Shown: piece by piece, positions 2,069-63,356 of the stretch
How the letters are laid out: each line of letters opens with the position of its first letter
How positions within the stretch are numbered: position 1 is the first letter of the stretch
Source of the DNA: a virus
Virus record (IMG/VR): IMGVR_UViG_3300045988_083782
Length of the DNA stretch: 64,000 nucleotides
Reading direction: 5' to 3' (one strand)
Notes under the pieces: model-generated
Seen by the model: the letters and a program-made list of their open reading frames with translations, nothing else
The model's database searches: none
Told to the model about the DNA's origin: nothing
Program-made: the position numbers and the translations under genes

Positions 2069-2581
2069 TTAGATTTCTTCTAGAAACTTAGTATAACTAG
2101 GCTCTAGAACGTCCTTTAATGGAACTGTTTCTATGCATTTGCCTGAATAGGAAATGTCATAGATATAATCTTCTATATCAATTCTGTTAGAATATTTCCA
2201 TAACTTAAAGATTGCGACTTTATGTTTTGGAGTAAGACATCTATTACCACTATTCTTAAGTGCTTTAAATTCATGTCTAAAACACATTGGAACAGTAAAG
2301 ATAGCTAAGTCATAAAATACTCCATCTATCCTAATAGAATATCTATTATAGAAATTTCTATTTCTTTCTAACATTTGATCTAGTTGATCTACTTGTTTTA
2401 TAGTGTTACACTTAAATAGGATAAACAAATGATTCTCAAACCATGGGTAGTCTTTACTTTCATTGTACATGTTAACAAACATAGGACATTCAAGTAATTC
2501 ATTATTATCCATAATCAACTGCGACATAAACATTGCAGTTTTATTTAAGTTCCTCAATTCCGTCATTCTCGTAGTATTCAC
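2069..2581 (-). CDS. hypothetical protein (start uncertain; 2533 would avoid overlap with the upstream gene)
   Basis: 170-aa ORF ending in TAA, co-oriented in the early block. Confidence 0.5.
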   Translation of the reverse strand: MNTTRMTELRNLNKTAMFMSQLIMDNNELLECPMFVNMYNESKDYPWFENHLFILFKCNTIKQVDQLDQMLERNRNFYNRYSIRIDGVFYDLAIFTVPMCFRHEFKALKNSGNRCLTPKHKVAIFKLWKYSNRIDIEDYIYDISYSGKCIETVPLKDVLEPSYTKFLEEI

Positions 2582-3524
2582 GAGTATGTTCCCAATTACC
2601 AGAATTGATATGATATGATATTCCTTTTAAAGCGTCTGATATTACTTCTGACCTTTTGGATAACTCCTCAGGGTTCAACATATTGAACACTCTAATTTGA
2701 TTATTACCATTTGTTTGAATAGCTATTATATATGCCCTCTTTTCATATTCAGACATATCAATACCTAGTTCATTAGTAAAATACCAATCTAGAGCTTCAA
2801 AGTAAAATTCAAGCTGCCTATAATAGTCGTACTCTTCTACAGAATGCTTAAAGTTAAAAGCATCTGAAGTAGTTTTAAGGTCAATAAGAGTAACTACTTT
2901 ATTCTTATGATCTAATATAACTCTATCAATAAGAGATTTACAGTCTATTCCTGAAGACGAATGCGTCCAGTTAATATGAAATTCATTATGACTTTCTACA
3001 TCTTCGGTCCATAACAATTTCTTAGCTGCTACATGATTTTCTAGATTTGATTTAATGTTCTTTAACATATTCAAATCTGCAAAGGATATAATATTCTTAA
3101 AGTTTCTAGTTCTAAGATATTTTATATAGTTAGTATAAGTATCTACTAATTTAGTAGCATCATCTAATACAACTTCATCCTTTTTACTGTTACTATAAGA
3201 GCTCCTATATGCTTTAATCTTTAAAGTATCTACTGATTCTAGTGGTTCTGTAGACAATAGATTAGCATAGCATTCGCAGAAGGTCTTCTGCTGAGGTGCC
3301 TTAGGTGTATCAAAATCAAGTATTTCATAGTCTTTCCAGAATTCCTCTGGCTGTAAAATGTACTCGTGGATCATAGTACCTCTTTCAAGAAACTTACCAC
3401 TAAGTCCTTCCTCTTTATTATCGAGCATATCTCTTAGATATTGAGGCCCCTTATTAAGAAACCAACCTATCGCAGAGTTCGAAATACGAGTATTATCTTC
3501 ATAATAAGGAATTATTATTTCCAT
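2541..3524 (-). CDS. PD-(D/E)XK family nuclease/exonuclease (putative)
   Basis: ORF 2541-3548; likely start is MEIIIPYY at 3524. Motifs GTMIHEY and ILD...LIDLKTT fit a RecB/Cas4-like nuclease core. Confidence 0.55.
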   Translation of the reverse strand: MEIIIPYYEDNTRISNSAIGWFLNKGPQYLRDMLDNKEEGLSGKFLERGTMIHEYILQPEEFWKDYEILDFDTPKAPQQKTFCECYANLLSTEPLESVDTLKIKAYRSSYSNSKKDEVVLDDATKLVDTYTNYIKYLRTRNFKNIISFADLNMLKNIKSNLENHVAAKKLLWTEDVESHNEFHINWTHSSSGIDCKSLIDRVILDHKNKVVTLIDLKTTSDAFNFKHSVEEYDYYRQLEFYFEALDWYFTNELGIDMSEYEKRAYIIAIQTNGNNQIRVFNMLNPEELSKRSEVISDALKGISYHINSGNWEHTREYYENDGIEELK

Positions 3525-4845: not shown

Positions 4846-5235
4846 TTATTTTTTTGAAAGTTCGTTGACCATCTCGTCAACTTGTTTCTGATTACGGACT
4901 AAAAACAACTTATAGTCCTTGTTTTCTTGTTTTAAATAATACTTAAAGATCTTCCATCTTAACGGAAAACTATCCGTTACAAGACCTTTACATTCTATGA
5001 TAAAGTTTTTTCCAACAAAATCGGGAAGATAAGTCATAGCTCTTACCTTTTCTCCATTATATTCAAACTTTGGAATAAGCTCAAAGTGAGTAGATTCATA
5101 TTCTGCATCTATTCCAGCTTCTTTAAGCTTTTTGTAGGTATAAGTTTCGAGTTTACTTCTAAACTTTATACCATCATATATATTTGGAGTAGCATTACGT
5201 ACTTTTCCCTACGATTTCTTCTTACTTTTATTCAT
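4846..5235 (-). CDS. DUF1064-like PD-(D/E)XK nuclease (putative Holliday-junction resolvase class), one in-frame TAG at 5209-5211
   Basis: ATG at 5233-5235. N-terminal DGIKFRSKLETYTYKKL and later LPDF...IECKG match the DUF1064 pattern only if the TAG is read as sense. Confidence 0.6.
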
Positions 5236-10073: not shown

Positions 10074-10814
10074 TTATTCTGGTAAAAATATTTTATCCCA
10101 ATGAACGGTTACTTCATTGTTTTCATTGCTATCTGCAATTGCTATTTTCTGTCCTCTAAGATGTGGAGCTCGTGCCTCTCTTACTGAGTTATCGCCACCT
10201 TCGAACGAAATTATAGTTTCATTCTTTTTACGGTATACATAACCTACAGCATCAGCTTCCCCGCAGACAATATCACCTAAACGTCCAACAAGGTCAATAG
10301 CCATTTCTGTGAGCTCTTCTCCATCTTTATTGATCATCTTATCTTTAGTATGACCAATTAGGATAAAGTTATCACATAGTTCCTTGAACATATTAATAAC
10401 TTTCTTTACAGCTTCTCTAATATAGAGATATCCAGCACCATTAGGTAACTGTCTAACATCTTCTCCTTTGAATGATTTACCCATTGGAGTTTGTCTATAT
10501 AGAGATGCTGCAAATGGTAAACATATCTCCTCTAAACGAGTAGCATTATCAATTGCAATATACTTGTAAGGTCTCTTACCAGTCTCTGCAATCTTCTGTC
10601 TAATAGCATTTGCGATTTCTCCAAGATCATTGACTGTTCTAGCCTGAATTGAGAGGGCTTCGAGAAACTCGGAGCCACCCTCTAAATCGACTATAAGACA
10701 GCCATCTAACTTAGAAATCAATGTAGTTTTACCAGATTTTGGTTTGCCAAATAAGATCAGAAATCTAGGATTCTGCACCTTTGGCGCATTCTTTTCAGTA
10801 GGTAGTACTAACAT
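10074..10814 (-). CDS. Sak4-like (AAA_24) RecA-fold recombination ATPase
   Basis: Walker A GKPKSGKTT near the N-terminus, Walker B-like ILIGH; size and context fit. Confidence 0.6.
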   Translation of the reverse strand: MLVLPTEKNAPKVQNPRFLILFGKPKSGKTTLISKLDGCLIVDLEGGSEFLEALSIQARTVNDLGEIANAIRQKIAETGKRPYKYIAIDNATRLEEICLPFAASLYRQTPMGKSFKGEDVRQLPNGAGYLYIREAVKKVINMFKELCDNFILIGHTKDKMINKDGEELTEMAIDLVGRLGDIVCGEADAVGYVYRKKNETIISFEGGDNSVREARAPHLRGQKIAIADSNENNEVTVHWDKIFLPE

Positions 10815-31148: not shown

Positions 31149-31172
31149 ATTTTGATAATATTAAATTATAGG
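31149..31172 (-). promoter_or_regulatory. recurrent early-gene leader motif
   Basis: Plus strand after CAT: ATTTTGATAATATTAAATTATAGG. Confidence 0.3.
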
Positions 31173-31180
31173 CTTTCGCC

Positions 31181-33306: not shown

Positions 33307-33437
33307 AGCTTTGAAAGGGAAGAATTTTTACCCTCTGTTTAGATACCTACGGATGTTCCTCCCATTACTATATCCCGGGGAGTGATTTATGTGCAGGTCT
33401 CCCCACACACAAAATAACTCGTAAAAATTTTTTTATA

Positions 33438-33963: not shown

Positions 33964-34185
33964 ATGGCAAATAAGATATTAAATACTAGTAAGAGACGAC
34001 CAATTGCATATCCGGGTAAATATGTAGATGTAAATGGTAAAGACTTTTTCTTAGCAATGGAGACAGATCAAAGTAGCTGTAAAGGGTGTGCTTTCCTGAA
34101 TACAGGATGTGATGCAAATAGAACTGCTTACTGTACTCAGGGTTATATTTTCAAAGAAGTAATTTTAGATTTAAATAAAAAGTAA
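33964..34185 (+). CDS. small Cys-rich protein, tandem paralog 1
   Basis: SSCKGCAFLNTGCDANRTAYCTQGYIFKEV. Confidence 0.5.
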   Translation: MANKILNTSKRRPIAYPGKYVDVNGKDFFLAMETDQSSCKGCAFLNTGCDANRTAYCTQGYIFKEVILDLNKK

Positions 34186-34397
34186 TGTACATATACGATA
34201 AAGAGTTAGCTGAGATTATTAAGAATAATATACCAGTTGAGATAAATAGTAAACAGTACTTAATTGAAGCTAATAAGTCTGGTAGTTGTGATGGCTGTGC
34301 ATTTGGTGATCTAACAAAGTGTCCTTCTAGAGCTGTGCATTTTTGTTGCTCAAATGGTGGCAATATCCTTAAAGAAGTGAAACATACTAAGAAATAA
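34185..34397 (+). CDS. small Cys-rich protein, tandem paralog 2
   Basis: GSCDGCAFGDLTKCPSRAVHFCCSNGGNILKEV; ATG overlaps the previous stop. Confidence 0.5.
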   Translation: MYIYDKELAEIIKNNIPVEINSKQYLIEANKSGSCDGCAFGDLTKCPSRAVHFCCSNGGNILKEVKHTKK

Positions 34398-34412
34398 TAC
34401 GTTTATAATTAC

Positions 34413-34778
34413 ATGGAAGATAAAATACTAGAAACAGTTGTAAACAACTTGGAATATACATTTGAGAAAGATGTATTAGTTAAGCCTTTAGAACCAGTAA
34501 TGGTTAAGAAAGATATCACTACACAGATTCCAACAGGTGAGAAAGATGAAGATGGATTTGAGAAGTATGAAACTAAGACAGAGACTAAAGATGTTGAATC
34601 TGAATTCTTAAAGGGTGTGGTACTTGCGTTACCTACTTGTCTAACTACTCCTGAAGAGTCTACATATAAGGTTGGAAGTACTATAGTATATAACAAGAAG
34701 TTTGCAAAAGACTTTGATTTATATAAGAATAGTCAGTTGGTTAAACCTTACGACGTGATTGCCGTAGTTAATAAATAA
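34413..34778 (+). CDS. GroES/gp31-like co-chaperonin (tentative)
   Basis: Pattern VLVKPLEP ... KGVVLALP ... VGSTIVYNKK ... LVKPYDVIAVV parallels GroES IVKR ... GEVLAVG ... VGDIVIF ... LIMSESDILAIV. Confidence 0.4.
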   Translation: MEDKILETVVNNLEYTFEKDVLVKPLEPVMVKKDITTQIPTGEKDEDGFEKYETKTETKDVESEFLKGVVLALPTCLTTPEESTYKVGSTIVYNKKFAKDFDLYKNSQLVKPYDVIAVVNK

Positions 34779-34826
34779 TGACACAAAATTAAATTGTGTT
34801 TTTCATAAAATAAAAATTAATTATTT

Positions 34827-34856
34827 AAAGGTAGCTTTCAAGGCTACCTTTTATTT
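34827..34856 (+). terminator. Rho-independent terminator
   Basis: AAAGGTAGC TTTCAAG GCTACCTTT TATTTT. Confidence 0.55.
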
Positions 34857-35012
34857 TATCTATACTTTAAATGTTAAAATGTGTTAACTAAAATTAACAT
34901 CATTGTTACACCTCCGTTTTATAGTCAGTTATGGAAGACATACTAGTAGTACTGTTATGTGCTCTTATGATCACACTAGCAGTCAAAGGTTTAAATAAAA
35001 AAGATTAATAAT

Positions 35013-35390
35013 ATGAATAGTTATAAAGTAATTAAATCATTTGCAGCAGCGCGTAAAGGTGATATGCTTGAGCCTAATGAAAAAGGTTTGTTGGTTCTTA
35101 ATGTTCAGGATAAATTCAGTAGTAGATTTGTTGCTGTAGATGAAGATACCGCAAATGAATTGGTTGAGAAAGGTTACTTGCTTGAAATGAAATCATCTAA
35201 CAATGATACTAGACTTGAAGCTATCAAAGATTTCTGTGATACAATGCTTCAGAAATATGATAGTGATTTAGATGAAGTATTGAGTAAGTATAATGAAGGT
35301 CTTATCCCTACTTGTGTTAAAGTAGAAGCAGAGACTGTTTATTATAATATGACCAAATTGCTTGATAAAATTAAGGAATTAGCAAAATGA
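35013..35390 (+). CDS. hypothetical protein
   Basis: 125-aa ORF. Confidence 0.5.
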   Translation: MNSYKVIKSFAAARKGDMLEPNEKGLLVLNVQDKFSSRFVAVDEDTANELVEKGYLLEMKSSNNDTRLEAIKDFCDTMLQKYDSDLDEVLSKYNEGLIPTCVKVEAETVYYNMTKLLDKIKELAK

Positions 35391-35764
35391 ATAAACTGGT
35401 AAAGCAAGTCAATAAGACTGACCTTTACAAAGAATTCCTTACTTCTCTAAATGGAGTATTGCAACTTACTGACAGGGAGCTAGAACTTATGACTACTTTG
35501 GTCGAGCTAGACGTTAATTACGAAAAGCTCCCTGGTCATAGTAAGAATGTAATTAATACAGAGAATAGAAAATATATCAGACAAAAACTTGGAATTACTC
35601 CAGACAATTTAAGTCGATATATAGGGAGATTCAAAGAAAAAGGTCTGTTAGTGCAAGGAAAAGTGGAGGATGAAATTACTGTTAATAAGGCAATTATACC
35701 CGAAATAATTGGTGATAGAGTTCAAATCACTTTAATATTAAGATTGAAAAATGAAACAAATTGA
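35387..35764 (+). CDS. putative helix-turn-helix DNA-binding protein
   Basis: NRKYIRQKLGITPDNLSRYIGRFKEKGLL resembles a winged-helix/HTH segment. Confidence 0.4.
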   Translation: MNKLVKQVNKTDLYKEFLTSLNGVLQLTDRELELMTTLVELDVNYEKLPGHSKNVINTENRKYIRQKLGITPDNLSRYIGRFKEKGLLVQGKVEDEITVNKAIIPEIIGDRVQITLILRLKNETN

Positions 35765-36152
35765 AGTTAAACCAGGAACTATATTCTTAGGTAAAGAATA
35801 TAAATGGTATGAAAAGATTTGGTCATTTATTACTAGAAAAAAGTTAGATTATAATAAGTTTTACGTATTCGACGAAACAATGTCAATGATTGGTAATCCA
35901 AGAACATCTCGCCTAGTACTGTTAGAACCGAAGAAGAAATACTCTAACAAAGAAGTAACCAAATTACGGTTACTTAACCGTCTAGGTTGGATAGACAGAG
36001 CTGAAGATGTTTTAGCTACTATTAATACTATCAGACCAAATACAGTAGATGGCAATAAAGGATTAAATCAATTACTTACTAATAGATTCTACAATATTAG
36101 ACATCTTTCTGATGAAAAAGAATACATAGAATATATACCAGCAACTAAGTAA
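35751..36152 (+). CDS. hypothetical protein
   Basis: 133-aa ORF. Confidence 0.5.
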   Translation: MKQIEVKPGTIFLGKEYKWYEKIWSFITRKKLDYNKFYVFDETMSMIGNPRTSRLVLLEPKKKYSNKEVTKLRLLNRLGWIDRAEDVLATINTIRPNTVDGNKGLNQLLTNRFYNIRHLSDEKEYIEYIPATK

Positions 36153-36361
36153 GAAATATAACCTACCACATCAAGTAATAGAAGTAATATGTAATCATCC
36201 TTTTATGTTTGCTAATAAGGTAATCTCAGATGAAGAAGATACTAGAACACTGATGTTCTCTTACTTAGGTAAGATAAAGATTAAGAAGAAGTATGAAGAC
36301 GATAAGAAGAGTGAAAGTAAAAGACCTAAATTAGGATCTGCGGACACAGCTAGTTGAGTTA

Positions 36362-36559
36362 ATGGTCTATTACAAAATGTCTTATCCTATAGGCTTACAT
36401 AAAGAATGTGAGATACAATTAGATGATAAAAGTAATAGGATAATTACTCCTGATGAAGAATACCATCTTGATGATTACACTTACTGTTACTTATATATGT
36501 TAAGTAATGAAGTAATAGCAAATATATATAGAAGATTAAATGAAGAAAACGAAGGCTAA
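36362..36559 (+). CDS. hypothetical protein
   Basis: 65-aa ORF. Confidence 0.4.
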   Translation: MVYYKMSYPIGLHKECEIQLDDKSNRIITPDEEYHLDDYTYCYLYMLSNEVIANIYRRLNEENEG

Positions 36560-37004
36560 AATAGTTGCATACGATCCTGAGATATATCCGGTGTATTTAT
36601 ATGTTGGTACAGTAGAATGTTTGAATGAAGCTAATAAGTTGTTTGATGGTTATGATACAATGCAAGATGCTTCAAATGATCAAAATTCAGGAGATATCGT
36701 AGTATCAAATGATAATGTAGATGGCATAACAGTATGTGTTAGAGAAAAGAAAACAGGAGCAGTTGGCTTACTTGTTTTGATTAATACTAAATTAGCTGAG
36801 AACACGGTATCTGAAGTAGTTCCCCATGAATCAGTTCATGTCGCAGACGGTATATTCGATTACTTGGGAATAGTTAAAAGTAATTATGAAGCAGGTAATG
36901 AACATTATGCTTACTTAGTTGGTTGGGTTGCAGGAAGAATTAGTAATTACTTAATTAATTACACAAATAAAGAAAATAATAATGGAACAGACAATGAAAT
37001 TTGA
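36540..37004 (+). CDS. putative zinc metallopeptidase-like protein
   Basis: HExxH motif (VPHESVHVADG). Confidence 0.4.
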   Translation: MKKTKAKIVAYDPEIYPVYLYVGTVECLNEANKLFDGYDTMQDASNDQNSGDIVVSNDNVDGITVCVREKKTGAVGLLVLINTKLAENTVSEVVPHESVHVADGIFDYLGIVKSNYEAGNEHYAYLVGWVAGRISNYLINYTNKENNNGTDNEI

Positions 37005-37638
37005 AGAACCAGTATTGAAATTTAAGAAACTTAATTATGTTGAAGGAGTGGATGAAAATAATACTCCAATTATCAAAGAATCTAACGGTGTATTACCTGT
37101 TAAAGCTCACGCAACAGATGCAGGCTATGATCTTACGGCTACTAGGTTAACACAGGAGTTAGACGAAGCTAACAAAGTAATTCTAGTATATCATACTGAT
37201 GTTGCAGTAGAGATCCCTAGAGGATATGTAGGTCTACTTATGATGCGTAGTTCTGTAGCAAAGAGATCAATGATGCTGACTAATTGTGTTGGTGTAATTG
37301 ATGAAGGATACAGAGGTGAACTGATGATGAAGTTTAAACTTACTACTGATGCATTGCCTAGAGTATACCAGATTGGTGAGAAGATTGGTCAGCTTGTAAT
37401 AGTACCTTGTTTCCATGGAGAACCAGTATTTGTAGATGAACTAAGTAATACAGATAGAGGTGAAGGTGGCTACGGTAGCACTGGAAACACAGTAGAAGAT
37501 AAAGGTACAGATTTGATTTTAGAACCAGAAAAACTGCAACACAATGAACATAACACAGGAGAGTCTACAACAGGAGATAATGTATTATCAGCAGATAATT
37601 CAGAAGTATCGAATGAATCCGGAGTATGTGAATCCTAA
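36982..37638 (+). CDS. dut: dUTP diphosphatase (trimeric dUTPase) with C-terminal extension
   Basis: Motifs AGYDL, MMRSS, GVIDEGYRGE and TDRGEGGYGSTG. Confidence 0.85.
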   Translation: MEQTMKFEEPVLKFKKLNYVEGVDENNTPIIKESNGVLPVKAHATDAGYDLTATRLTQELDEANKVILVYHTDVAVEIPRGYVGLLMMRSSVAKRSMMLTNCVGVIDEGYRGELMMKFKLTTDALPRVYQIGEKIGQLVIVPCFHGEPVFVDELSNTDRGEGGYGSTGNTVEDKGTDLILEPEKLQHNEHNTGESTTGDNVLSADNSEVSNESGVCES

Positions 37639-37710
37639 CTGCTCTTTAGATAATGCAATTGAACTAGTAGATAGACTTACTAGAGAGTTTTATTTAAATA
37701 CTAGGAAGAT

Positions 37711-37803
37711 ATGATAATCATAACAGAAAGCATGATGTATTTATGGATTGCTATGATAATAGGTTGTGGATTATTCTACTTATGTAATAAAATACTAAAA
37801 TAA
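37711..37803 (+). CDS. 30-aa hydrophobic peptide (tentative)
   Basis: MIIITESMMYLWIAMIIGCGLFYLCNKILK, ATG to TAA. Confidence 0.3.
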   Translation: MIIITESMMYLWIAMIIGCGLFYLCNKILK

Positions 37804-37808
37804 ACAAT

Positions 37809-38126
37809 ATGAAAAATATAATTGACGGTAAATTAAAAGTATGTATTACTGGTGACAATATGGAAAACATACAGGTAAGAGAACTAGAGAAAAAGTGCGG
37901 TTTCTATATTGATGAAACATACATTGCTGAAGAAGACGGAGAAGTACTTATCGATGGAGAACTAGTTCCGTTTAAAGCAGGTGATATACTAGCAATATAT
38001 GGTACATGGGTTAGAGGTAACAGCGATAGATTAGAGTATCAAACAGTTGTTATTCCTAGTACAGATCAGTTAGCTATTTCGTTAAAAAAGACTATAAAAA
38101 AGACTGTTAATGAAGCTGCTTCATGA
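37809..38126 (+). CDS. hypothetical protein
   Basis: 105-aa ORF. Confidence 0.5.
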   Translation: MKNIIDGKLKVCITGDNMENIQVRELEKKCGFYIDETYIAEEDGEVLIDGELVPFKAGDILAIYGTWVRGNSDRLEYQTVVIPSTDQLAISLKKTIKKTVNEAAS

Positions 38127-38183
38127 AGAAAATCCACCAATTGAAGAGGATTTTAACCCCTGAAGTGATAAAGATAGAGCCGT

Positions 38184-38711
38184 ATGAAGCTATTTGACAT
38201 ACTTGGAGGTAAAGTAGTAATACATTCAGATGCTTTAGGTATCCCATGCTTTAAAAAGGTGTGGGATGCTGACAAACCTGATAAAGAGCATGCTACTAAT
38301 ATAATCAGTTACATTGTATTAAAGAATAAATGGGATAGTCCATATGTACTTAGTTCTGATAAAGAGAATATTGAACCAAGGCTTAAGAAACAACTACTAG
38401 GTGATGCTAATTATAAGCTGACTACAGATGAAATACAATGTGAAAAAGAATTCATAGGATTTCAAAATACTAATACTTTACAGATGCTAACTAATATGCG
38501 TTTGAAGTTAGATAGTATTAGTAAGTACTATAGAGATTCACTAGATGAAATACTAGACGAGAAGAAGATTAAAGATATTCTAGCTGGTATGACAAGCGTA
38601 GGTAATGTCTATAAATCATTAGACTTACTTGAGAAAGCAGTTAAGAGTGAAGAGTTATCTAGTACTAAAGTAAAAGGTAATGCTGAGATTAATCCTTATG
38701 AATTAAATTAA
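38184..38711 (+). CDS. hypothetical protein
   Basis: 175-aa ORF. Confidence 0.5.
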   Translation: MKLFDILGGKVVIHSDALGIPCFKKVWDADKPDKEHATNIISYIVLKNKWDSPYVLSSDKENIEPRLKKQLLGDANYKLTTDEIQCEKEFIGFQNTNTLQMLTNMRLKLDSISKYYRDSLDEILDEKKIKDILAGMTSVGNVYKSLDLLEKAVKSEELSSTKVKGNAEINPYELN

Positions 38712-38732
38712 TTTGTTTAAAAAAAACATTAC

Positions 38733-38951
38733 ATGGAAACTAGTATAAAGTTAAGCGTTTTATTGAGTATTAACACTGAAAATAATATGAAGAACAATTT
38801 TACAATGCCAGATGTAGTTCTGGATCTTACAGACGAGAATAAAGATATTTTTGAAGCTATTGCAGAATGTGAAGCTAAACGCCAAGATCTATTGCATTCT
38901 CCGTGGTATAAGAGAATCTTTAAACCTGTAAAACGTAGTTTGAAGAAATAA
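38733..38951 (+). CDS. hypothetical protein
   Basis: 72-aa ORF. Confidence 0.4.
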   Translation: METSIKLSVLLSINTENNMKNNFTMPDVVLDLTDENKDIFEAIAECEAKRQDLLHSPWYKRIFKPVKRSLKK

Positions 38952-39015
38952 CTATTCAATAGTAAAGTTATGACTAGACATAGCTTGAGTGTCTTAAAAG
39001 AAGTCAAGCATACAT

Positions 39016-39090
39016 TCTCCTATGGTGTAATGGTTAGCACAGGAGGCTCTAACCCTCTTAGTCTGAGTTCGAATCTTAGTGGGAGTACCA
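39016..39090 (+). tRNA. amber suppressor tRNA, anticodon CUA (reads UAG), probably Gln-type
   Basis: TCTCCTA TG GTGT-AATGGTTA-GCAC A GGAGG-CTCTAAC-CCTCT TAGT CTGAG-TTCGAAT-CTTAG TGGGAGT A CCA. The anticodon loop CU-CUA-AC has U33 and A37. The D-arm UGGUGUAAUGGUUAGCAC resembles tRNA-Gln genes as I recall them. CCA is encoded. Confidence 0.85.
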
Positions 39091-39226
39091 ATAAATATTG
39101 AAGATGAGCGCGCATCAACGTAACCACCTAAGTCACTTACTATTTGATCCAATAGTAAACACAGCTAATGATGGTCCTAATCGTAAGTAGGCACTTTTAT
39201 AGAGTTAAGTGGTATAACTCTATTAT

Positions 39227-39299
39227 GGCGGGATGTAGCAGTTGGTAGCTAGTCAGGCTCATAACCTGAAGGTCGTTGGTTCGAGTCCAACTCCCGCAA
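39227..39299 (+). tRNA. tRNA with anticodon CAU (Met, or Ile2 if lysidine-modified)
   Basis: GGCGGGA TG TAGC-AGTTGGTA-GCTA G TCAGG-CTCATAA-CCTGA AGGTC GTTGG-TTCGAGT-CCAAC TCCCGCA A. Position 1:72 is a G.A mismatch. Confidence 0.8.
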
Positions 39300-39304
39300 C
39301 ATTT

Positions 39305-39328
39305 AGGGAGGTTAAATACCTCCCTTTT
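39305..39328 (+). terminator. Rho-independent terminator after the tRNA pair
   Basis: GGGAGG TTAAATA CCTCCC TTTT. Confidence 0.55.
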
Positions 39329-39347
39329 CAATTCGGAAAAGAAGATA

Positions 39348-41432
39348 ATGGAAGACAGATAGATAGTAAGCAAGATTGATTTTTATAAGCCTATTAAGAA
39401 TAGCAATAAGTTCAGAAAGCCAGCTCTATAGTACATAGAGACTGGCTCTTATTGTTCCTACCCTAAGAATACTACAGAGTATTTTCAATTCTGGGATAAG
39501 GAAATTAGATATTGTATAGATGGTTATACTGCTGAAGACGGTGATTGGATAAGCGGGTATAACTATTTTTATTTGAACTATTGTCCTATCTCTAGAGTAG
39601 TGTATGAAACATATACAGATAGATTTGGCAATCAAAAGAAACGCAAAGTAAAGAAAGTAGAATTTGCTGATTTCTGGGATTATGATTACTATTACTTTAC
39701 TGCTATATAGGAAGCTGAAGAATCAGGTACACATATGTGTGTATTAAAAGCCAGACGTCGTGGTTACTCCTTTAAAGGTGCAGCTATGGCTTGCCGTAAC
39801 TATTATCTAATACCAGATAGTAAGACATATATATATGCATCAAATAAACAGTATCTTACTGAAGATGGTATTCTTACTAAAGCGTGGGACTACATGGACT
39901 TTATTGATAAGAATACAGCTTGGGGTAAGAAAAGATCTGTTAATACTTAGATGCGTAAACGTGCAGCTGTTAATGTTAAAGACGAGTATGGTAATGAAAT
40001 AGAATTGGGTTACAAATCTGAAATCATTGGTGTTACTCTAAAAGACAATCCTGACGTAGTACGTGGTAAATCAGGTAAGCTTATCTTATTTGAGGAAGCA
40101 GGTTCATTCAGTGAATTAGGTGCAGCATGGCAGATTGCTAGACCTTCTGTAGAACAAGATGGTGTAGCGTATGGTCTTATGTTAGCATTTGGTACTGGTG
40201 GTGACCCTTCTTCAGCATTTGATACACTGAAGGACATGTTCTATAATCCTAAAGGCTATAATTGTTTAGGCTTCTAGAATATATGGGATGAAAACCCAGG
40301 AGATAAACCGTGTGGATTCTTTGTGCCACAGTATACTAATATATCTGACATGGACGATAATGGCAATCGTCTGTATATGGATGTAGATGGTAATACTTTG
40401 CATAAAAAGTCAATAGACAGAATATTAGACTTACGTAGAGATGTAATAGAAAATGCTACTAGCACTACAGCTGTAGATAGATATGTAGCAGAGCGACCTA
40501 TTACACCTGCTGAAGCAATGCTCGAATTTAATGGTAACATCTTCCCTAAGAAAGAATTACAAGCACATTTAGCTATGATTCGTACCAATCGTAGTCTACA
40601 AAATCACAAACAAGTAGGTGACTTGGTGTTTGGTGATGATGGCTTACTTAAGTGGATACCTAAGAAGAGAGGCGACATTACTAAATATCCGTTAAGTAAA
40701 GATGATGACCCTACTGGTTCAATAGTAATATGGGAACACCCAGTATAGGACGCACCTGTTGGATTGTACATAGCGGGTATGGACCCGTATGACCATGATT
40801 AGGCTGGTACTAATTCATTAGGCTCTATGTTCATTTACAAGCGATTCTAGAGCTTTGAAGAATATTATGATATAATTGTTGCTGAGTATACTGGAAGGCC
40901 TTCTACAGCAGAGGAATACTACGAGAATGCACGTAAACTATTGCTTTACTATAATGCTAGATTGATGTACGAAAATGAACGTAAAGGCATATTCCCATAC
41001 TTTACTGCTAAACATTGTGATTACTTACTAGCAGATCAACCTGATATCATTAACGACATTGTTGGTAACTCAAAAGTATAGCGTAGAAAGGGTTGCCATA
41101 TCAATAAGTAGATTAAGGACTGGGGTGAAGGTATGATAAAAGATTGGCTTAACGAAGAGTATGCTCCAGGCAAAAAGAACTTAACCAAGATACTATCAGA
41201 ACCGCTATTGGAAGAACTTATAGGTTATAATGACAAAGGAAATTTCGATAGAGTGTGTGCGTTAATATAGCTAATGATTTATAAAGAACAACTACATAAT
41301 TTAGTTGTTAAAGAAAAGACTAAAGAGAATAGGAATAGGATATTATTTGATGGGCCAATATTTGCGCAACAGTGGTCAGATGAACCAAGTATGCCTAACC
41401 TATTTAATGATTCAAATACGTATACGTTTTAA
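39348..41432 (+). CDS. terL: terminase large subunit, at least 10 in-frame TAG sense codons
   Basis: Single frame from ATG 39348 to TAA 41430. ORF-track pieces 39735-39950, 39951-40277 and 40323-40748 are all in this frame. ATPase region VLKARRRGYSFKG and nuclease-domain GMDPYDHD. Sits directly upstream of the portal gene. Confidence 0.8.
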
Positions 41433-44351: not shown

Positions 44352-44882
44352 ATGGCATGCGGAAATAATTATTATGTTTACAAACATAGTACTCCTAACA
44401 ATAAAGTATACATCGGAATAACTAAGTAGAATCCAAACCGTAGATGGAGAAATGGGCATGGATATAAAGATTCTCATCTATTTTTCAACGCTATTATTAA
44501 ATACGGATGGTTAAATATAACACATGAAATACTAAAGGAAGGTTTATCTTTTGAAGATGCGTGTAAATATGAAAAATATTACATAGATTTATATAAATCT
44601 AACGATAGAGAATTCGGTTATAATTTAACTAAAGGAGGCGGAAGAAAGTCAGACCAGATCAATAAAACTGAATTTATCAAAATTGGTACTGGTAAAAATA
44701 AAGGGAAAGAAATATTAGTATATAATGTTAACGGTGAATATATTGGTGAATTTATATCATCATATCAAGCAGCCAAGGTATTAAATTGCGATTAGGGGCA
44801 TATTCGTAAATGTTGTCAACATAAAGAAGGGAGAACTAAACATAAAGGTTACATTTTTAAATATAAGGAGGAAATACAATGA
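44352..44882 (+). mobile_element. free-standing GIY-YIG homing endonuclease gene (two TAG codons)
   Basis: YYVYKHSTPNNKVYIGITK, RRWRNGHGY, YEKYYIDLY and FGYNLTKGG. The C-terminal NUMOD-like segment is ILVYNVNGEYIGEFISSYQAAKVLN. Confidence 0.75.
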
Positions 44883-50970: not shown

Positions 50971-51008
50971 TATATTGTAGTTGCTACAAATAAATAATTT
51001 ACAAGAAT
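50943..51008 (+). repeat. 26-bp perfect direct repeat flanking the junction with the homing endonuclease gene
   Basis: GCTACAAATAAATAATTTACAAGAAT at 50943-50968 and again at 50983-51008. Confidence 0.9.
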
Positions 51009-51747
51009 GGATTACACTAAGTTTTTAATAGATGATAATTATTCTGTAGATTATGTCATTTACAGATTTAAAAATAATGTAAATGGAAAAGTCTATATAG
51101 GACAAACTACTAAAAGTTTACATAAACGAGTAATCTAGCATTTAACTAATAGTAGACCTACTACAAAAGCTCATAAAACTTATTTTCATAACGCGTTGAA
51201 CAAATACGGAATTGAAAATTTTAGTTTGGATATTATTGAGCGTTGTTCTTCGCAAAAAGAACTAAACGAAAGAGAAATATATTGGATCGCTTATTATAAA
51301 TCTACTGATAAAAAATATGGATACAATATAGATTCTGGAGGAAATCTAGGAAAGTCTACATCTAAGTTAAGTAAAGAACATAGACAAGCATTACTTGCTG
51401 CTAATCTTGGAAAACAAAGATCTAAAACTACTAAATAGAGACTTAAACAAGTTCATAAATAGTTATGGGAAGATCCTGAATTTAAAGCTAAACATATTGG
51501 TAATATTTTAAAAGTGGCAGGAATAAATAAAAAACCTGTATATCAATACGATTTAGATGGTAAGTTTATAAAGGAATGGCAATGTATTTCTGATGTACAA
51601 GAAGCTCTATATGGAAATAAAAGAAACGGAAACATGACTAGAAATATTATTAACAGCAATAACAAAAATATGTTGGGTTTTATGAAAAATATGTCCATTT
51701 GGTCATTTACTTCACCAGCGGAAAGGAGGGCTTATCAGCGCACGTGA
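51007..51747 (+). mobile_element. free-standing GIY-YIG homing endonuclease gene (three TAG codons)
   Basis: YVIYRFKNNVNGKVYIGQTTKSL, NALNKYGIENF, REIYWIAYYKS and YGYNIDSGG. Pieces 51196-51438 and 51514-51747 share the frame. The stop is TGA. Confidence 0.75.
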
Positions 51748-55809: not shown

Positions 55810-58800
55810 ATGAATAGAAATAACATATATACAGTTAATCCATTATATAATGGTTCTACTACTTAGACTACAGAAGATGGTTCTGTACAAAGTGGTGGAA
55901 CCACTATTATTTACCAATAGGGTGGTGGAACTGGTCTAACAGATGCTTAGAAATAGAAACTAGATGGTATTTAGGAAGGAGCTGAAGTAAATCAGAATGC
56001 TTACTCAAAAGTAAGATTAAATGGTTCTGATGCTTTAATAGTAGAAGCAAAGAATAAAACTGATATACTTAACATGTCAGGAGTATATCCTATTGCTATT
56101 GCTATTAATGACAATGGAGGACTTGATTTTACAGTATCATCAGACCAATCTAATACTAATTCTGTAGTAACACAAGCATAGTTAAAAGCTGCTCTAGATT
56201 AGTTAGAAAAAGATCAGTATTGGAAAGTAGATGCAGATGGTAAGTTATATACTGAATTAGATGTATATTCTCACAAAGAAATCTCAGCGTATGGAGCTGG
56301 TACTGGTGGAGGAGGTACAGGTGGTGCAGGTGCATTATATGAATGTGCCGATGTACTTAGAGATGGTGATAAAGTAAAAGGAGCAGAAGTAGGCTCTGTA
56401 TTATCATACAATGGTACACACTGGTATGCTATTCCACAATCAGCAATTGTTCCAGATCTTAGTGGTTACGCTACTAAATCATATGTATCATAGGAGATTA
56501 ATGACCTAATAGGTGGAGCTCCTGGTACATTAGATACTTTAAAAGAGATTGCAGAAGCATTAGGCAACGATCCTAACTTTGCAACTACTATTACCAATAT
56601 GATAAACAATATTGGTCTTAGAGTAGATGACATAGAAGCTAGAGTAGTATCTCTAGAAGATATGTTTGAATGGGATAAATCTGCTAGTGCTAGCGATTCA
56701 TCTCTTTGGCGTATTAAGGCAAAGAGAGATTTATTTGGAGTAGGAGAAATCTCAGCGTATGGGTATTCAGCAGGCACAGTACCAACTGGTGCACAATACT
56801 TATATGAATTAAAGGATGTACAACTAACAGATTTAGCTACAGGTCAATTACTACAGTATAATGGAAGTAAGTGGGTAAACATAGATAAGAATGCAGTAGG
56901 TCTTAATGAAACAGAATTAGGTAGATATCTTACTAATAATAACTATGCTAAGAAAACTGATATTACTTGGGCTAACTTACTAAACAAACCTACTACTTGG
57001 GCATGGGCTGATATTACTGGTAAACCTACTACATTAGCTGGATATGGTATTACAGATGCTGTAATTAGTTCTAGATAGGTATTAGCAGGTAATGGATTAA
57101 CTGGTGGAGGAGCATTAACCTCTGATGTTACTTTATCATTAAATACTATTGGAACTGCTGGTACATATACTAAAATAACTACAGATCAATATGGTAGAGT
57201 AGTATCTGGTACTATACTATCTGAAGGTGATATACCTACTTTACAAATAAGTAAGATTAGTGGGTTGTAGTCTGCATTAGATAGTAAACTCAATATAAGT
57301 GATTTCAATACTTGGTTTACTATTAATAGAGATACATCTGGTAATATAGTTAGTATATAGGCTAATTACAATCTATTCTCTGTGGGAGAAGTATCTGCAT
57401 ATGGATTAGGTGGAACTCAACCTTCTATTACCACATTAGCTGGATTAGATGATGTTAATATTAGTAACCCACAAAATAAGTAGGCACTAATATATGATTC
57501 TGCATCAGGTAAATGGATAAATGGAGCAAGTGTTGGAGGAGGTAATATATCTCTTAATGGTACTGTTTATACAGCAGTGGATGGACTTATTACTTTACCT
57601 AATTTATATGAAAAAGTTGCAGGAGGTACTTCTTCTCAATTCCTCAAAGCAGATGGGAGTGTAGATGGGAATAGATACTGGGAATACAGTCATGTGTCTG
57701 TTCCAGAATCTATAGACTTTACATATCATGATGGAAAGCTACGATTAATACAGAATAATTCTGGTACATCCGTTGGACCAACTATGTATTGGGGAGGTCT
57801 ATCTGCAATTAGTAATTACAATGGTTTTCAGCTTGTAGTATATGGAGGTACTACTGAAGCGTATTATATCAGAAAAACAGCTGATAATAATACTTGGAGT
57901 GATTGGTCATAGCTAATAACATCTAGAAATTATGAAGGTATTGTAGGTAATAAGTTTGTATTAAAAGCAGGTGACACTATGACCGGACGTCTTACTGCGC
58001 CTTTTTTTAGAGCGAACAATATGATCTCTGTCGGAGTTCCTGTAGAACAATTATCTTCGTCTAGAGCTGAATTAAACATAATCACATTAACAAATAATCC
58101 TTGTGATATATGGATGGGAGCTAATAATCAAAGACATTGGTCTATTACAGCTAGAGATTCTACCGAAAATTATCAATTAGGTATATACAATAGTAAAGTA
58201 TCTAGTTGGAACGCTATCTTTAGAGACAATATTAATGACTTTTATGTTAAGACAGAAGTACGTGATACTTTCTTGGTCTTACCGACAACAGGTGGTGGTT
58301 ATAATGAGGGCATTAGAATAGGAAATGCTTCAAACGGATGGTCTAATATTCAATTCGGATCTCAAAATGCTTGGAACGGTAAAGTTGATGGGCAATGGAT
58401 TATAGGAAGAAATCCGGTGAAGTATTTCCAGATTTGTCTAGCTGGAACTGAAACTGCCAACACTTCAAAACCGGGTAAAGGAATCTCCATAGATATTAAT
58501 GGTTATCTGGATACTGGTTATATCCGTCCTAATATAGATACTGAATATAAAGCGAATTATTTCTATGCTTCAGATGATAGTTTCATAAGAAGAACTACTT
58601 GGAATTACGCTCTAAACTGTTTAAACCAAAATCAATTAACTTTAGACCTTTCAAGCCTTGATTCTAATAAGTGGTATCCCTGTACTATCAATGCTCCGGC
58701 TTACGGAGGAACCCCATTGAGAATCACTATATTTAATGGTCTTAGAGGTAATAAACCATCGTGGGCATCACACTCTTCCGGATTCTCTTTGTTACTGGAT

Positions 58801-60429
58801 TATTATGTGACGGGTTCCGGTTGGGGAACGTTAAGTGCTGTTTCTAAGTTAGATTGGTATCATGGATCTTATGGTGGGGAAACTGCTTTTGGCGGTAGAC
58901 AACAAAACACGATGGGATCTGCTGAGATTGTTTATTTGCGTGGTGGAGGTGTCTATTATTATAGAACTACTAATCACGGACAGTTAACTGTTCATCCAAA
59001 TGGGTATTCTTGGGCTAGCGGATCTTATACGTATAGTGCGGCAGTAAAAACCTCACAAGATAATTCTCCAATGGAGAAAACATTTGATCAGGTATATTGG
59101 GCACCTGCAAATCTAAGAACAACAAGAAATTTATGGGGACAACCTTTTAATGGCACAAGCGATGTATCTGGAGCTTTGCAATATGTGACTACCATTAATG
59201 CTTCTAGCACTATCTATACAGGTGGTGATATTATTGCTTACAGTAGACTGTTTTGTGGAGGTTATTTATATGTTCATAGAAACGCACATAGTAGTAGTGC
59301 AGCTCCTGCTATATCCTTAGCAATCGGAGACACTGATACCGGATTTAATTGGTATTCAGATGGTGCTGTACAGATTTATTCTAACGGGTCTGCTGTAGGA
59401 ATGTGGACAGGTAGTGAGTTTAGATATGGTCACGGGTATTTTAAACAAGCTAGTGGAAACGACTATTCTCAATTAGGTATAATGGTCAACGGTAACGGTA
59501 CTGCCAATACTATTAAACCTGGAATCGGTTTTCACCAACCAGGAGTATTTGCAGGATCTATAAGAATGAATGATGGTTCTACATTTGGACTCTATGCTCA
59601 GGGTGGTAGTGGTCTAGCAAACCTTAGTTTGAATGGATGGTATACAAATTTCGGTTATATAAATGGTGACGGAATACACCTTTCATCAGGTTGGCTTAGG
59701 ACTGTTGGGGCTACAGGCTGGTATAATGAAACCTATGCTGGTGGTATGTACATGGCAGATGGTACTTGGATAAGAACTTATAACGGTCGAAAGTTCTATG
59801 TTGATAATGCAGAGGTAGATGCTATATTAACTCAGGGAGGTTTTAGAAGCAATGGCAATAGTCAAGTTGGCTTACAAATTGATGGTTCTGAATCTACTAG
59901 GACTATTATCTATGGAAAAATTGGTTCTACTGTAAATTCAGTAGTTGCCAGATATGCTGTAAACTGGTATTCTGAATGGGCACGCTTTGATGTACATCGA
60001 GGAGGAGGAACAGATATTCTAAAATTTAGCTGGAAACATAATGATACAGAATTAATGTATCTAGGTATGGGAGGTTATTTCCAAGTTAACGGTACTATTG
60101 TTTCTACAGGTGAAGTTACAGCATATTCTGATATAAGACTTAAAACCAATATTAAACCTCTAGATTATAAGGGAAGGTTAGCTCCTAAATGGTTTATCAA
60201 AGATAATAAGCCTAGTATTGGCTTCATTGCACAAGAGGTGTAGGCTTTATACCCTGAACTTGTTAAAGTAAACACAAGTACTATAGAGAATTACCTGAGC
60301 TTAAACTACGGTGCAATTACCGCAGTTCTCTCAGCTCAAGTAAATAAAGTAGAGGATGAAGTAGAAGTACTTAAAAATAGAATCAGATAGCTTGAGAATG
60401 AAGTTGCTCTGTTAAAACAGAAACCTTGA
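55810..60429 (+). CDS. large tail fibre protein (1539 aa, about 20 TAG sense codons) with C-terminal peptidase S74 intramolecular chaperone domain
   Basis: I translated frame 1 codon by codon from 55810 to 60429 and found no TAA or TGA. Fibre motifs LAGYGITDA, GTYTKITTDQYGRVVSG, FLKADGS and LKAGDTMTGRL. The S74 signature is GEVTAYSDIRLKTNI...IGFIAQEV...ALYPELV, followed by a coiled coil. Confidence 0.8.
57640..57672 (+). repeat. left copy of 33-bp perfect inverted repeat (candidate recombination site)
   Basis: TTCCTCAAAGCAGATGGGAGTGTAGATGGGAAT, in frame inside the fibre gene (FLKADGSVDGN). Confidence 0.9.
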
Positions 60430-63127
60430 TCTCTAGCTCTCTTACTTTGTTTTTCAACGTAGTTACTTCATCTTCAACATGATTCAACTATGCGGACAAT
60501 ACAGCAGTACATCCATTGTAGTTCAGAGATAAATATGGGCGATTCTTATCCTAGCCTAATACTAACTCTGGATACAATGCTTGTACTTCTTGTGCTATAA
60601 AACCTATTGATTGCTTACCATCCTTTACATAGTGTCTAGGTATAAGTCTTCCTCTATAGTTTAATGTATGTATATTACTTTTTAATCTAGCATCTGAGTA
60701 TGCAGTTACCTCACCAGATGCAACCACACTGCCAGTTACTGATAGAGTACTTCCAGTAATTGTTACAACATAACTTCCTGTAGTATTGTTTACATCTCCA
60801 TTTCTTCTACCTATATACATGTTTCCATCCTAATTAGAGTATATTCCCCATGTATAACTACGGTTAGCTAAATTAATTCCTATGTGATTAGTGTTGTATA
60901 GCTTTATACCACAATAATGACCGCCAATACCCCAAGATCTGTAACCAGAGTTATATAACACTTTATTATTGTATACCTAAACCATATCAGAATCAGTCAT
61001 ATAGATCCCACCTCCATAAGATTGAGAGTACCATCCGGTAGCACCGTCTGTACGTATCCAAGACGAAGCTCGAATATCACCAGATACATTTAATTTATAA
61101 TCAGGACTAATTCCTCCAATTGCAACATTACCACCTCCATTACACATCTGTAAATGTTGACCTGATTTATGCTGTAAGTACAATCTAGAGTTCCAGTTAT
61201 TTATCTCAGAAGAACATCCTCCGTCATTACCAGAATTATCAGTTTCTATACAAATATTTCTACTTTTTAAACCAATACTTGAAAAGAAGGTTTGCGCTGA
61301 CCAATTGACGCCATCTTTATTACTATTATAAGCAGTCCATACTTCATAGTTTGTACCATAAGAAGTCCCATTAGAATTTTGGGTGCTTATACCAAATCTA
61401 GGTGTCCCATTTCTAATAAAATGTAAGGCACACATTGGAAGTACATCACCACCTGAGTATCCATTAATCCATAAGGTATCAGACCAAGGTCCTCCAAAAC
61501 CAATACCAGTCATAGCAACTCTTAACCCCATGTGTTGAGAGAAATAAGTTTGCGGATTAGCTTGCGTTCCACCATTATATCTAGTAGGTAAATACGTAGC
61601 ATACCCATCTATATTTCCAGTAATTGTATTCTTAGAGGTCAAGTTGGTAAATACCGCAGCTCCATTTGTTCTTATACTCCAATAAGCTTCCGCAGCTCCA
61701 TCAGCAGAGCAAAGGTCTTGACAATATACCCATCCGGAATTCCCCGAAGATCCTATATACAGATTATGATTTAAAGAACAAACTCTTTGCCCATATATTA
61801 TCGCACCAAAGATTTTACCAAATTGCCATGTTTCAGTACCTAAGAAAGAATTGCCTGAAGAAGATCCTTGCTCAAATGGAATTAATCCGGGTTTTGCTGT
61901 TCGTATCCAATCCGTATCAATATTTCCAACTTTACCCATTCCATAGTATCCATTCTTGTTTATAGCTCTGATGTAGTTATCATCATATCTATTCATAGAA
62001 GTCTTAGGAACAAGTACAGCTCTTGATAGTCCTGTTTCTGCTGTTATAATAGATATACTAAATGAATTAATGACATAATGATTTGTAGTATTCTGACCAC
62101 CAAATATTTGATATAAAAATACTTTAGGATAATGCCATTCATAAGTTAAACTCCCTAGTAATATACAACATCTACCTGCATTATCATCGTAAGCAACTCT
62201 AACATCTCCACTAAATTCTCCATTAACTTGATAACTATAATTATAATAACCTGGACTAGCTGTATAATTATAAAAACTTACAGTTATTTCAGAGCTACCT
62301 TTATTATCGTATTCATAAAGCATTATCTTATACACAGCCATAGTATTACTCCAAGTAATAGGCAATACTATCTTTATAGTTCCGGTCATAGTACTACCGG
62401 TTCCATCAAACATAGAACCATTCCCAAAATAATTTGCTACAAATTTACCTCCTGACATATTTTGTGTAGACAAAACATCTGCGCTAAATTTATTGCTTAT
62501 AATCCAAGGAGCTTCAAACCATTCACCGCCTTGATTACCCATAAGTATTATTCCAGCTGTTGCACGATAAGCATCAAAATCAGTGTAAACAAATGCTACT
62601 TGTTGTGATCCATTTGCAGCAGAAAATACTAGTTTAGGAGGAGCAGAAAGAGATGGAGGATTGACAGCATCTGCTGAAATGAATAGAGAACCAGTCATGG
62701 TATCTCCAGTTTTTCTCACATACAATCCATCTGCATAATCTTTATCTAATACCATCTTCCATCCATTCCAAGAAGTGCCTATGCCTGTACGAAAACGAAG
62801 GTTAGCATTAGGATTATTTGTAGACGATGGTCCCGCTAATTGCCATGTTACATAGTCTACATTTGACCATCCACTTACAGATATACCACTCCACCAAGTA
62901 CCAGAAGGCATATCGTTTAGATTAAAGAAAGTGCTAATAGTTCTAGATTCAAAGTCTGTGGGAGCTGGGAAAGATTCTCTTCTATCAATAACATGTAGAG
63001 AATTACTAACATTAGATTCTAAGACTTTATTCTAATTACCATTATATGCTAAGGCATACAAATTCCCATCTACACTCCCATCTGCTTTGAGGAACTAAGT
63101 TAAACAAATATAAATATGTATAAAATA
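60383..63127 (-). CDS. alternative tail-fibre distal cassette with S74 chaperone domain; no start codon upstream of the repeat
   Basis: The minus-strand frame is open for 915 codons from just after TAA 63128-63130 to TGA 60383-60385. Pieces 60977-62911 and 60551-60820 are joined by TAG codons. It begins ...TQ(TAG)FLKADGSVDGN. The first ATG is at 62911. It ends GEVTAYSDARLKSNI...IGFIAQEVQALYPELV. Confidence 0.7.
63062..63094 (-). repeat. right (inverted) copy of the 33-bp repeat
   Basis: The reverse complement of 63062-63094 is identical to 57640-57672. Flanks diverge immediately on both sides. Confidence 0.9.
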
Positions 63128-63356
63128 TTAGAAAATATAAGTAGTAGAGATCTATTAGAACACATATATGTAATGTAGTTATAGATACTAAATAAACTAA
63201 ATAAAATGGATGATGATGGTAAAGAATTTGCCTTAAATCTATTAGCTGATTTAATAGGTTCTAAGATAGTAGAGCGATAGGATTCTGTAATATTTGATTC
63301 TATCAATACTACAACTCGTAGTTAATTACGTTAAATATACATAAATTATATTAATA

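Follow-up and report, generated by a model that had tools for sequence, protein, structure and literature searches.

Probable inversion of tail-fibre cassettes at short perfect repeats, without a recognised invertase, in a crAss-like phage

Inversion of a segment within a tail-fibre gene, by which a constant N-terminal part is followed by alternative C-termini, is known from the G segment of phage Mu (and of D108), where inverted repeats of about 34 bp lie in coding sequence, the serine invertase Gin is encoded beside the segment, dyad-symmetric 26-bp gix sites, an enhancer and Fis are involved, and the outcome is an alternative host range. Fibre distal parts are also exchanged by inversion in the C segment of P1/P7 (Cin), in e14 (Pin) and in p15B (Min), all of which require a serine invertase of the Din family and crossover sites that are conserved, and in the R64 shufflon the tyrosine recombinase Rci joins alternative C-terminal PilV adhesin tips to a constant N-terminus by inverting several segments separated by 19-bp sfx repeats. 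In the L and S segments of herpes simplex virus and the large inverted repeats of plastids, inversion is driven by identity and carried out by the replication and recombination machinery, the repeats, which are kilobases long, are homogenised by gene conversion, and no coding consequence is known. Here, a tail-fibre gene with two convergent, alternative distal cassettes between 33-bp perfect inverted repeats was analysed in a 64,000-nucleotide stretch of viral DNA (IMG/VR record IMGVR_UViG_3300045988_083782, the whole of which is called the window, and on which all positions are given unless stated otherwise) from a phage assigned to the crAss-like group.

The initial annotation placed this locus with Mu G, P1 C and the shufflon, and this label stands for the architecture and the predicted outcome; it does not stand for the machinery, because no Gin-, Cin- or Rci-type enzyme, no dyad-symmetric site and no separate chaperone genes were found. 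Each orientation of the Mu segment brings a separate chaperone gene (U or U'), whereas here an intramolecular S74 domain takes that place; the repeat varies between genomes; and Mu is temperate, whereas the crAss-like phage is virulent. The cassette library of p15B resembles the diversity of the cassette types A, B, C, D and E described below, but here the library is spread over the population, with two cassettes per genome that are probably exchanged by homologous recombination. Unlike the shufflon, the locus has only two repeat copies and no multi-segment array. The flip-flops of herpesviruses and plastids, which are independent of a recombinase, appear to be the nearest mechanistic analogues, although the repeats here are only 33 to 55 bp, lie inside a reading frame and would alter the protein on flipping. 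A diversity-generating retroelement (DGR) needs a reverse transcriptase and template and variable repeats and mutates a few codons, whereas here whole modules of about 900 codons are exchanged and no reverse transcriptase was found. In the tail fibres of crAss-like phages, DGRs are another means of varying the receptor-binding tip (PMC12386605). Gene-altering programmed inversions of bacteria switch between alternative alleles, with tail fibre proteins as an enriched class; these inversions have been catalogued in bacterial chromosomes and prophages, with an enrichment of recombinase families near the loci (PMC9881135); the present locus differs in lying in a lytic Crassvirales genome in which no recombinase was found.

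The features of the locus are as follows.

55810..60429, plus strand: tail-fibre gene as assembled (constant part, repeat and cassette A), ending at a TGA after 1539 aa, TAG being read as Gln
55810..57639, plus strand: constant N-terminal part, the 610 codons that precede the repeat, conserved in collinear order in all relatives whatever cassette comes next
57640..57672, plus strand: IR-L, left inverted repeat, 33 bp, in frame within the fibre gene, encoding FLKADGSVDGN
57673..63061, no strand assigned: invertible segment, 5389 bp, two convergent cassettes; both reciprocal junctions in other assemblies, whole-segment inversions in sister genomes
57673..60429, plus strand: cassette A, 918 codons and stop, in the expressed orientation here
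60127..60267, plus strand: Peptidase_S74 domain of cassette A, Pfam PF13884, E 7e-9, aa 1440-1486
60383..60429, both strands: tail-to-tail overlap of the cassette 3' ends, 47 nt
60557..60697, minus strand: Peptidase_S74 domain of cassette B, Pfam PF13884, E 6e-7, PDB match 6F45
60383..63061, minus strand: cassette B, 892 codons and stop, in the silent orientation here, no start codon, 4 in-frame TAG
63062..63094, minus strand: IR-R, right inverted repeat, exact reverse complement of IR-L, preceded by an in-frame TAG (Gln)
63095..63130, minus strand: AT-rich stretch upstream of IR-R, TAA 11 codons upstream (63130), no start codon

The 33-mer TTCCTCAAAGCAGATGGGAGTGTAGATGGGAAT occurred exactly twice in the window, in opposite directions, where the expectation from shuffled sequence was 0, and there were only two copies per genome. 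On the outer side of the repeat similarity continued for only 5 more nucleotides, 3 of which matched (38 nt at 95%), and on the cassette side unrelated sequence began immediately, so that the exact-match count and the flank comparison bear out the two perfect repeats with abrupt loss of identity reported in the initial annotation. Because a TAG codon directly precedes the minus copy, both copies encode QFLKADGSVDGN. The self-complementarity of the 33-mer was at best 12/32, which is the chance level, and dyad symmetry was lacking. A suspected resemblance to gix/hix half-sites was dropped, having failed this dyad-symmetry check.

The constant part together with the repeat makes up 621 codons (55810-57672), and the constant part is presumed to form the virion attachment and shaft region. 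All 15 in-frame stops of the fibre gene are TAG, and the open minus-strand frame, with TAG as sense, has its bounding stops at 63130 (TAA) and 60385-60383 (TGA). The frames of 1540 and 915 codons given in the initial annotation thus exist only if TAG is a sense codon and are absent under the standard code, in which open reading frame (ORF) calling returned only fragments, every in-frame stop in both being TAG. When the standard-code fragments of A, B and one upstream gene were looked up as exact proteins, no match was returned. No ATG, GTG or TTG precedes the repeat in the antisense frame, and its first ATG, at 62911, is codon 73, as a frame check of the reported start-less minus copy confirmed. 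The two distal parts of about 900 codons, each ending in an S74 domain and meeting tail to tail, were likewise recovered, both domains exceeding the Pfam gathering threshold. PDB matches of the fibre gene were 6F45 (long tail fibre distal subunit) and 9D93 (tail collar fibres), and the C-termini of both cassettes resemble the solved subunit 6F45. Between A and B the last ~280 residues are shared at 41% identity, and no relationship is seen over the central ~600 residues. Cassette B also has a local match to Pfam Shufflon_N, limited to ~65 residues of a motif that fibres and pilins share. The final ~15 codons of both cassettes use the same 47 nt on opposite strands; gene calls of two-cassette relatives show mostly the same overlap, and some show 53 nt. 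Several single-cassette genomes retain 66-68 nt past the stop, which in one of them (L003) are the leftover of the other cassette's 3' end.

For the orientation analysis, viral and metagenome collections were scanned with the 33-mer, which yielded 17 loci, and the flanks of each copy (45 nt on the left, 60 nt on the right) were aligned. In the window and its near-twins the constant part is joined to cassette A (...GGTACTTCTTCTCAA, the 33-mer and AGATACTGGGAATAC) and the right flank to cassette B (...TTTGTTTAACTTAG, the 33-mer and TTGTATGCCTTAGCA). In L014 (ERZ773169, a 98.8-kb contig) the constant part is joined to B (...GGTACTTCTTCTCAA, the 33-mer and TTGTATGCCTTAGCA), with both flanks 100% identical to the window (45+60 nt), and in L016 (ERZ839823) the right flank is joined to A (...TTTGTTTAACTTAG, the 33-mer and AGATACTGGGAATAC), again with flanks 100% identical to the window. 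Further assemblies whose samples carry this genotype are ERZ651867, ERZ19634205 and ERZ1742684, and the D/E type described below is present in SRR15715297. By alignment, these junctions are the two reciprocal products of a crossover within the repeat, and the frames fused across the inverted junctions stay open. Both junctions support the inversion proposed in the initial annotation, in which the 5.4-kb segment flips and the constant 621 codons are fused to the other cassette, and the comparison of related genomes suggested there has supplied both orientations. L014 has cassette B at 99.3% identity in the expressed position, joined to the constant part, and cassette A was found in the silent position in L152/L015 (95%) and L016 (97%). 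A third type, C, was expressed in L007 and L012 and silent in L010 (on the same contig as L014), so that A, B and C were each found both expressed and silent.

The flipped contigs had been assembled with k of 55 to 141 (SPAdes k=55, MEGAHIT k119-k141), and because these k-mers are longer than the repeats of 33-55 bp, the orientation is read-supported and not arbitrary. In the OGRS01 assembly there is an overlap of exactly 55 nt between two contigs at the repeat, as at a branch of a k=55 graph, which hints that the constant part and repeat continue into more than one sequence in that sample and is the sole within-sample hint of this kind.

The wider lineage was sampled by a homology search with the TAG-free 86-aa protein encoded just right of the segment, which gave ~50 genomes and 48 fibre-to-flank regions. 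Two full convergent cassettes were present in 19/48 regions; others were single-cassette, and many regions retained remnants of an antisense cassette (~110-610 nt). The silent-position cassette A of L132 has a 2.1-kb internal deletion. A further cassette pair, D/E, was present in 11 genomes, with D expressed in 9 and E in 2 (L144 and L149). When L144 was compared with L173, 4831/4896 nt aligned on the minus strand, that is, the whole D/E segment was inverted. The silent D of L149 was 97.2% identical to the expressed D of L143, and the silent D of L144 was 93.5% identical to the D of L170. Since the D sub-clades are only ~77% alike and the two flipped genomes fall in different ones, at least two independent D/E inversions must have occurred.

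Among the 19 two-cassette genomes the repeats were perfect in 14 (33-55 bp) and imperfect in 3, and none was detected in 2. In L172, L175 and L179 the two copies are not identical. The class 1 repeat (33-39 bp, 6 genomes) lies at FLKADGSVDGN, and the class 2 repeat (perfect, 35-55 bp, 8 genomes) lies ~50-65 nt further in, at ..RYVLKTGDTM.G; the two classes share the partial core TCCTCAAARCAG. Five positions of the class 2 DNA vary between genomes, and both copies are identical within each genome. The core is altered at 4/12 positions in L144, yet the repeat there is perfect over 51 bp. Single-cassette relatives, fetched by protein homology and not through the exact 33-mer, show 4-9 mostly synonymous differences in the motif DNA, and therefore exact DNA identity tracks the presence of two cassettes and not the motif itself. 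The 33-mer had also been considered as a conserved recombinase site, being exact in relatives whose flanks are ~82% identical; this was rejected as an ascertainment bias of exact matching, given the 4-9 differences elsewhere and the use of another repeat in other genomes. Mosaicism, with breakpoints at the motif and within the S74 region (e.g. L003, L009 and L121), shows that homologous exchange between phages is also active at the locus.

A recombinase was sought by Pfam screening of ORFs over the whole genome of ~100 kb, mostly on a relative of 98-99% identity, with a minimum length of 100 aa in the early and middle region and of 70-80 aa in the late one. The genome had been closed to a circle of ~100.3 kb, for which three loci of the relative contig IMGVR_UViG_3300045988_026326 were tiled. 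Neither a serine or tyrosine recombinase (Resolvase, HTH_7, Recombinase, Phage_integrase) nor a transposase nor a reverse transcriptase was found in this screen, which extends to the whole genome the earlier remark that no invertase is visible in the window. The genes adjoining the right repeat encode an uncharacterised 69-aa protein and an endolysin. The 33-mer was absent from 185,579 bacterial and archaeal species genomes, and so no clue to a host or prophage was obtained. A DGR was rejected as the source of variation on account of the missing reverse transcriptase and of repeats that are inverted and identical. The general recombination functions available in the genome are the following.

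2541..3524, minus strand: exonuclease VIII-like PD-(D/E)XK nuclease, candidate partner, phrog_412 E 8e-24, weak Pfam PDDEXK_1
4846..5235, minus strand: Holliday junction resolvase-like protein (DUF1064 / endonuclease I-like), Pfam PF06356, phrog_190 E 1e-14
10074..10814, minus strand: Sak4-like ssDNA-annealing protein (AAA_24), candidate inversion catalyst, Pfam PF13479 E 2e-26, phrog_124 E 2e-28

Beyond this module the only nucleases were two GIY-YIG homing endonucleases away from the segment. Their genes (GIY-YIG/NUMOD; 44352-44882 and 51007-51747, both plus strand) are inserted among structural genes, and HNH/NUMOD endonucleases occupy other sites (by DUF7841 and in the primase region) in L146, L153, L156 and L025, so that the homing-endonuclease content varies in the lineage.

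The reading that we favour, and consider rather probable, is a homology-driven flip-flop of receptor-binding cassettes that operates without an invertase in a virulent crAss-like phage. The fibre would consist of the constant 621 codons and one of two distal cassettes of ~900 codons, each supplied with a receptor-binding centre and, at the C-terminus, a self-cleaving S74 chaperone of its own. Recombination between the 33-bp repeats encoding FLKADGSVDGN would invert the 5.4-kb segment, so that the constant part would run in frame into the other cassette and the fibre would gain a different tip. While the phage replicates, the inversion would proceed by identity-dependent homologous recombination at the short repeats, with the phage module of Sak4-like annealase, exonuclease VIII and Holliday-junction resolvase or host RecA as the catalyst, and gene conversion would keep the repeats identical. 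We infer the enzyme, the flipping rate and the change of host range, the last from the annotation of the fibre. The initial annotation had offered three sources of a recombinase: elsewhere in the genome, the host, or the Sak4/single-strand-binding-protein/exonuclease system. The first was not upheld, none having been found by Pfam, and the third is favoured because related genomes do not all invert at one repeat but use others with other sequences. Identity over 30-55 bp also points to homologous recombination, since heteroduplex repair yields it and the 2-8-bp overlap of a site-specific enzyme would not enforce it. The repeats show the concerted evolution expected of gene conversion: the 5 variable class 2 sites co-vary between copies, and single-cassette relatives drift at synonymous sites.

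Several points weigh against this reading. Both orientations are documented between separate assembled genomes and not within one population, and the A/B genotype of the window, at 98-100% identity (L116, L141, L142 and the window), has A expressed in 4/4 assemblies; flipping is therefore either not fast or strongly selected. A repeat of 33 bp is short for efficient homologous recombination, and three of the two-cassette genomes have imperfect repeats. L146 and L180 carry an intact silent cassette (~680-800 codons) with no inverted repeat of at least 11 nt between the fibre motif region and the silent 5' end, and these may be locked states or have the repeat located elsewhere. The shared core TCCTCAAARCAG could be a binding site and not a coincidence of codons, many phage proteins lack annotation and could conceal a new recombinase, and it is possible that a host invertase acts in trans.

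The last three points belong to the alternative that survives best, although we regard it as unlikely, namely classical site-specific inversion by a serine or tyrosine invertase supplied by a Bacteroidales host in trans or by an unrecognised phage protein, in the manner of Gin in Mu. Bacteroidales encode many invertases, some of them, such as Mpi, genome-wide in action, and the architecture here is that of Mu G and P1 C; however, no Resolvase, Recombinase, Phage_integrase or transposase domain was detected in the ~100-kb genome, in which several ORFs have no family match, none lies beside the segment, and none of the bacterial species genomes carries the 33-mer. The repeats are short, perfect and sharply bounded, as recombinase sites are, but the 33-mer lacks dyad symmetry, and the copies co-vary over 30-55 bp, beyond an overlap of 2-8 bp. 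Against the core common to both repeat classes stands the variation of repeat position and sequence among sister genomes, including L144, with its altered core and perfect 51-bp repeat.

That there is no working switch, the inversions being rare accidents and the antisense cassette a relic or the source of a shorter fibre protein from the internal ATG at 62911, is improbable. Many relatives are single-cassette or have truncated antisense remnants, such as the L132 deletion, some genomes have no repeat, and the four assemblies of the window genotype share one orientation. The antisense frame nevertheless has 903 open codons between the start of the repeat and the TGA (chance P ~3e-21), and dN/dS across silent and expressed copies was 0.20 for cassette A (against the silent copy in L152) and 0.22 for cassette B; the cassettes remain under purifying selection across both states. 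Silent cassettes also keep in-frame TAG, as late genes do, at least two independent inversions of one pair have occurred, and three cassette types are found in both positions. Gene callers predict an ORF of 842 aa from the internal ATG, but its product would be without the constant part, the presumed fibre anchor, and conservation extends over the 61 codons from the repeat to this ATG, which form part of the translated frame in genomes with B fused to the constant part. Nor is there promoter space: a plus-strand ORF of 69 aa starts at 63116, which leaves almost no intergenic room beside IR-R, sigma-70-like promoters were not enriched, and promoter-like motifs were at chance level. One such candidate, the Bacteroidetes -7-like motif TATATTTG 10 nt upstream of IR-R, was discarded because its frequency was that of chance (87 observed, 80 expected).

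That the opposite orientations are assembly artefacts, produced by arbitrary orienting of a segment between inverted repeats, is very improbable: low-k contigs do break at the repeat (L135 and L138 of Logan, k=31, start ~35 nt before the right flank) and the contigs of L006, L008 and L017 end at it or within 22 nt, but the k-mers of the flipped contigs span the repeats, the flipped states have different partner cassettes and sequence divergence, and single-cassette genomes join each cassette type directly to the constant part.

In the literature consulted on crAss-like phages, the subjects were DGRs, recoding and host phase variation, tail-fibre inversions being known from bacterial prophages, and no earlier report of fibre inversion in Crassvirales was found in literature searches, which were not exhaustive. 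The crAss-like phages belong to the most abundant viruses in the human gut. Their persistence for years, as strictly lytic phages, beside hosts whose capsules and surface proteins constantly vary calls for an explanation, and the phage-side ones offered so far are point mutation, DGRs and recombination. If the homology-driven flip-flop is true, the phage would possess its own equivalent of the phase variation of its host, in which the entire receptor-binding half of the fibre is reversibly swapped, and this would explain why metagenomic assemblies break or differ at the fibre locus of crAss-like phages. It would also mean that 33-55 bp of homology suffice for a switch based on inversion of coding sequence, with no site-specific recombinase involved; most searches for invertons expect or prioritise a nearby invertase, and genome scans should look wider. 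The motifs FLKADGSVDGN and RYVLKTGDTMxG would be natural splice points for engineering the fibre tips of crAss-like phages. More tentatively, and with rather less confidence than in the flip-flop itself, we suggest that the locus may be a true bet-hedging host-range switch without a dedicated invertase, in which general recombination flips the repeats, gene conversion homogenises them and the same motifs dock cassette swaps between co-infecting phages, so that a population-wide library of receptor-binding modules would counter the phase-variable surfaces of Bacteroidales.

The phage was assigned, by its encoded proteins, to the crAss-like phages (Crassvirales, Suoliviridae). The window encodes a crAss major capsid protein (Pfam Crass_capsid, E 1e-215) that shares 90% identity with its counterpart in Aurodevirus cr114_1 (Crassvirales, Suoliviridae), and the relative contig of 98-99% identity encodes the crAss_MUZ muzzle and the CrAss_Ring_1/2 ring proteins. 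When positions 54-64 kb were compared with GenBank phages by megablast, no close relative was found, and there were only short matches to cr112_1 and cr106_1.

The reading of TAG relies on one further gene of the window.

39016..39090, plus strand: suppressor tRNA with anticodon CTA, ARAGORN, Rfam tRNA

The counterpart of this tRNA in cr114_1 is annotated as tRNA-Gln, and from its anticodon it is taken to make TAG a sense codon in the late genes, both cassettes included. Reading TAG as sense opens many further late genes on the plus strand, and the early genes on the minus strand follow the standard code. Sense TAG is confined to the late, structural genes of the plus strand (window 1-2001 and 39348-64000), with up to 15 per gene, and the early minus-strand genes lie at window 2069-33704. 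The tRNA heads the late block, just upstream of the ORF in the terminase position (by synteny). Restriction of TAG recoding to late genes fits the published idea of a lytic-stage timer.

Other features were recorded in the remainder of the genome. On the relative contig IMGVR_UViG_3300045988_026326, a 4406-codon ORF without Pfam match lies at positions 27237-40457 of the reconstruction, and an ORF of ~1900 codons, also without Pfam match, extends from reconstruction position 40469 onward into window 1-2001; these are presumably the virion-packaged RNA polymerase or cargo proteins typical of crAss-like phages. In the early region, the ORF at 22593-23144 (minus strand) has sigma-70 region 2 and region 4 domains and is a phage-encoded sigma-like factor. 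Three Rfam families reached the gathering level between early genes, all on the minus strand: RAGATH-9 (128 bits, 26537-26697), the Hatchet self-cleaving ribozyme (87 bits, 27827-27966) and RAGATH-7 (148 bits, 31435-31633). A 2-kb stretch of the early region (window 18240-20251) has no ORF of at least 70 aa in either code and no tRNA or Rfam family. ARAGORN reported a permuted 'tmRNA*' at 25152-25532 (minus strand), which Rfam did not support, and a tRNA of 83 nt with the unusual anticodon ATT (labelled Asn) at 30395-30477 (minus strand), which Rfam agreed to be a tRNA.

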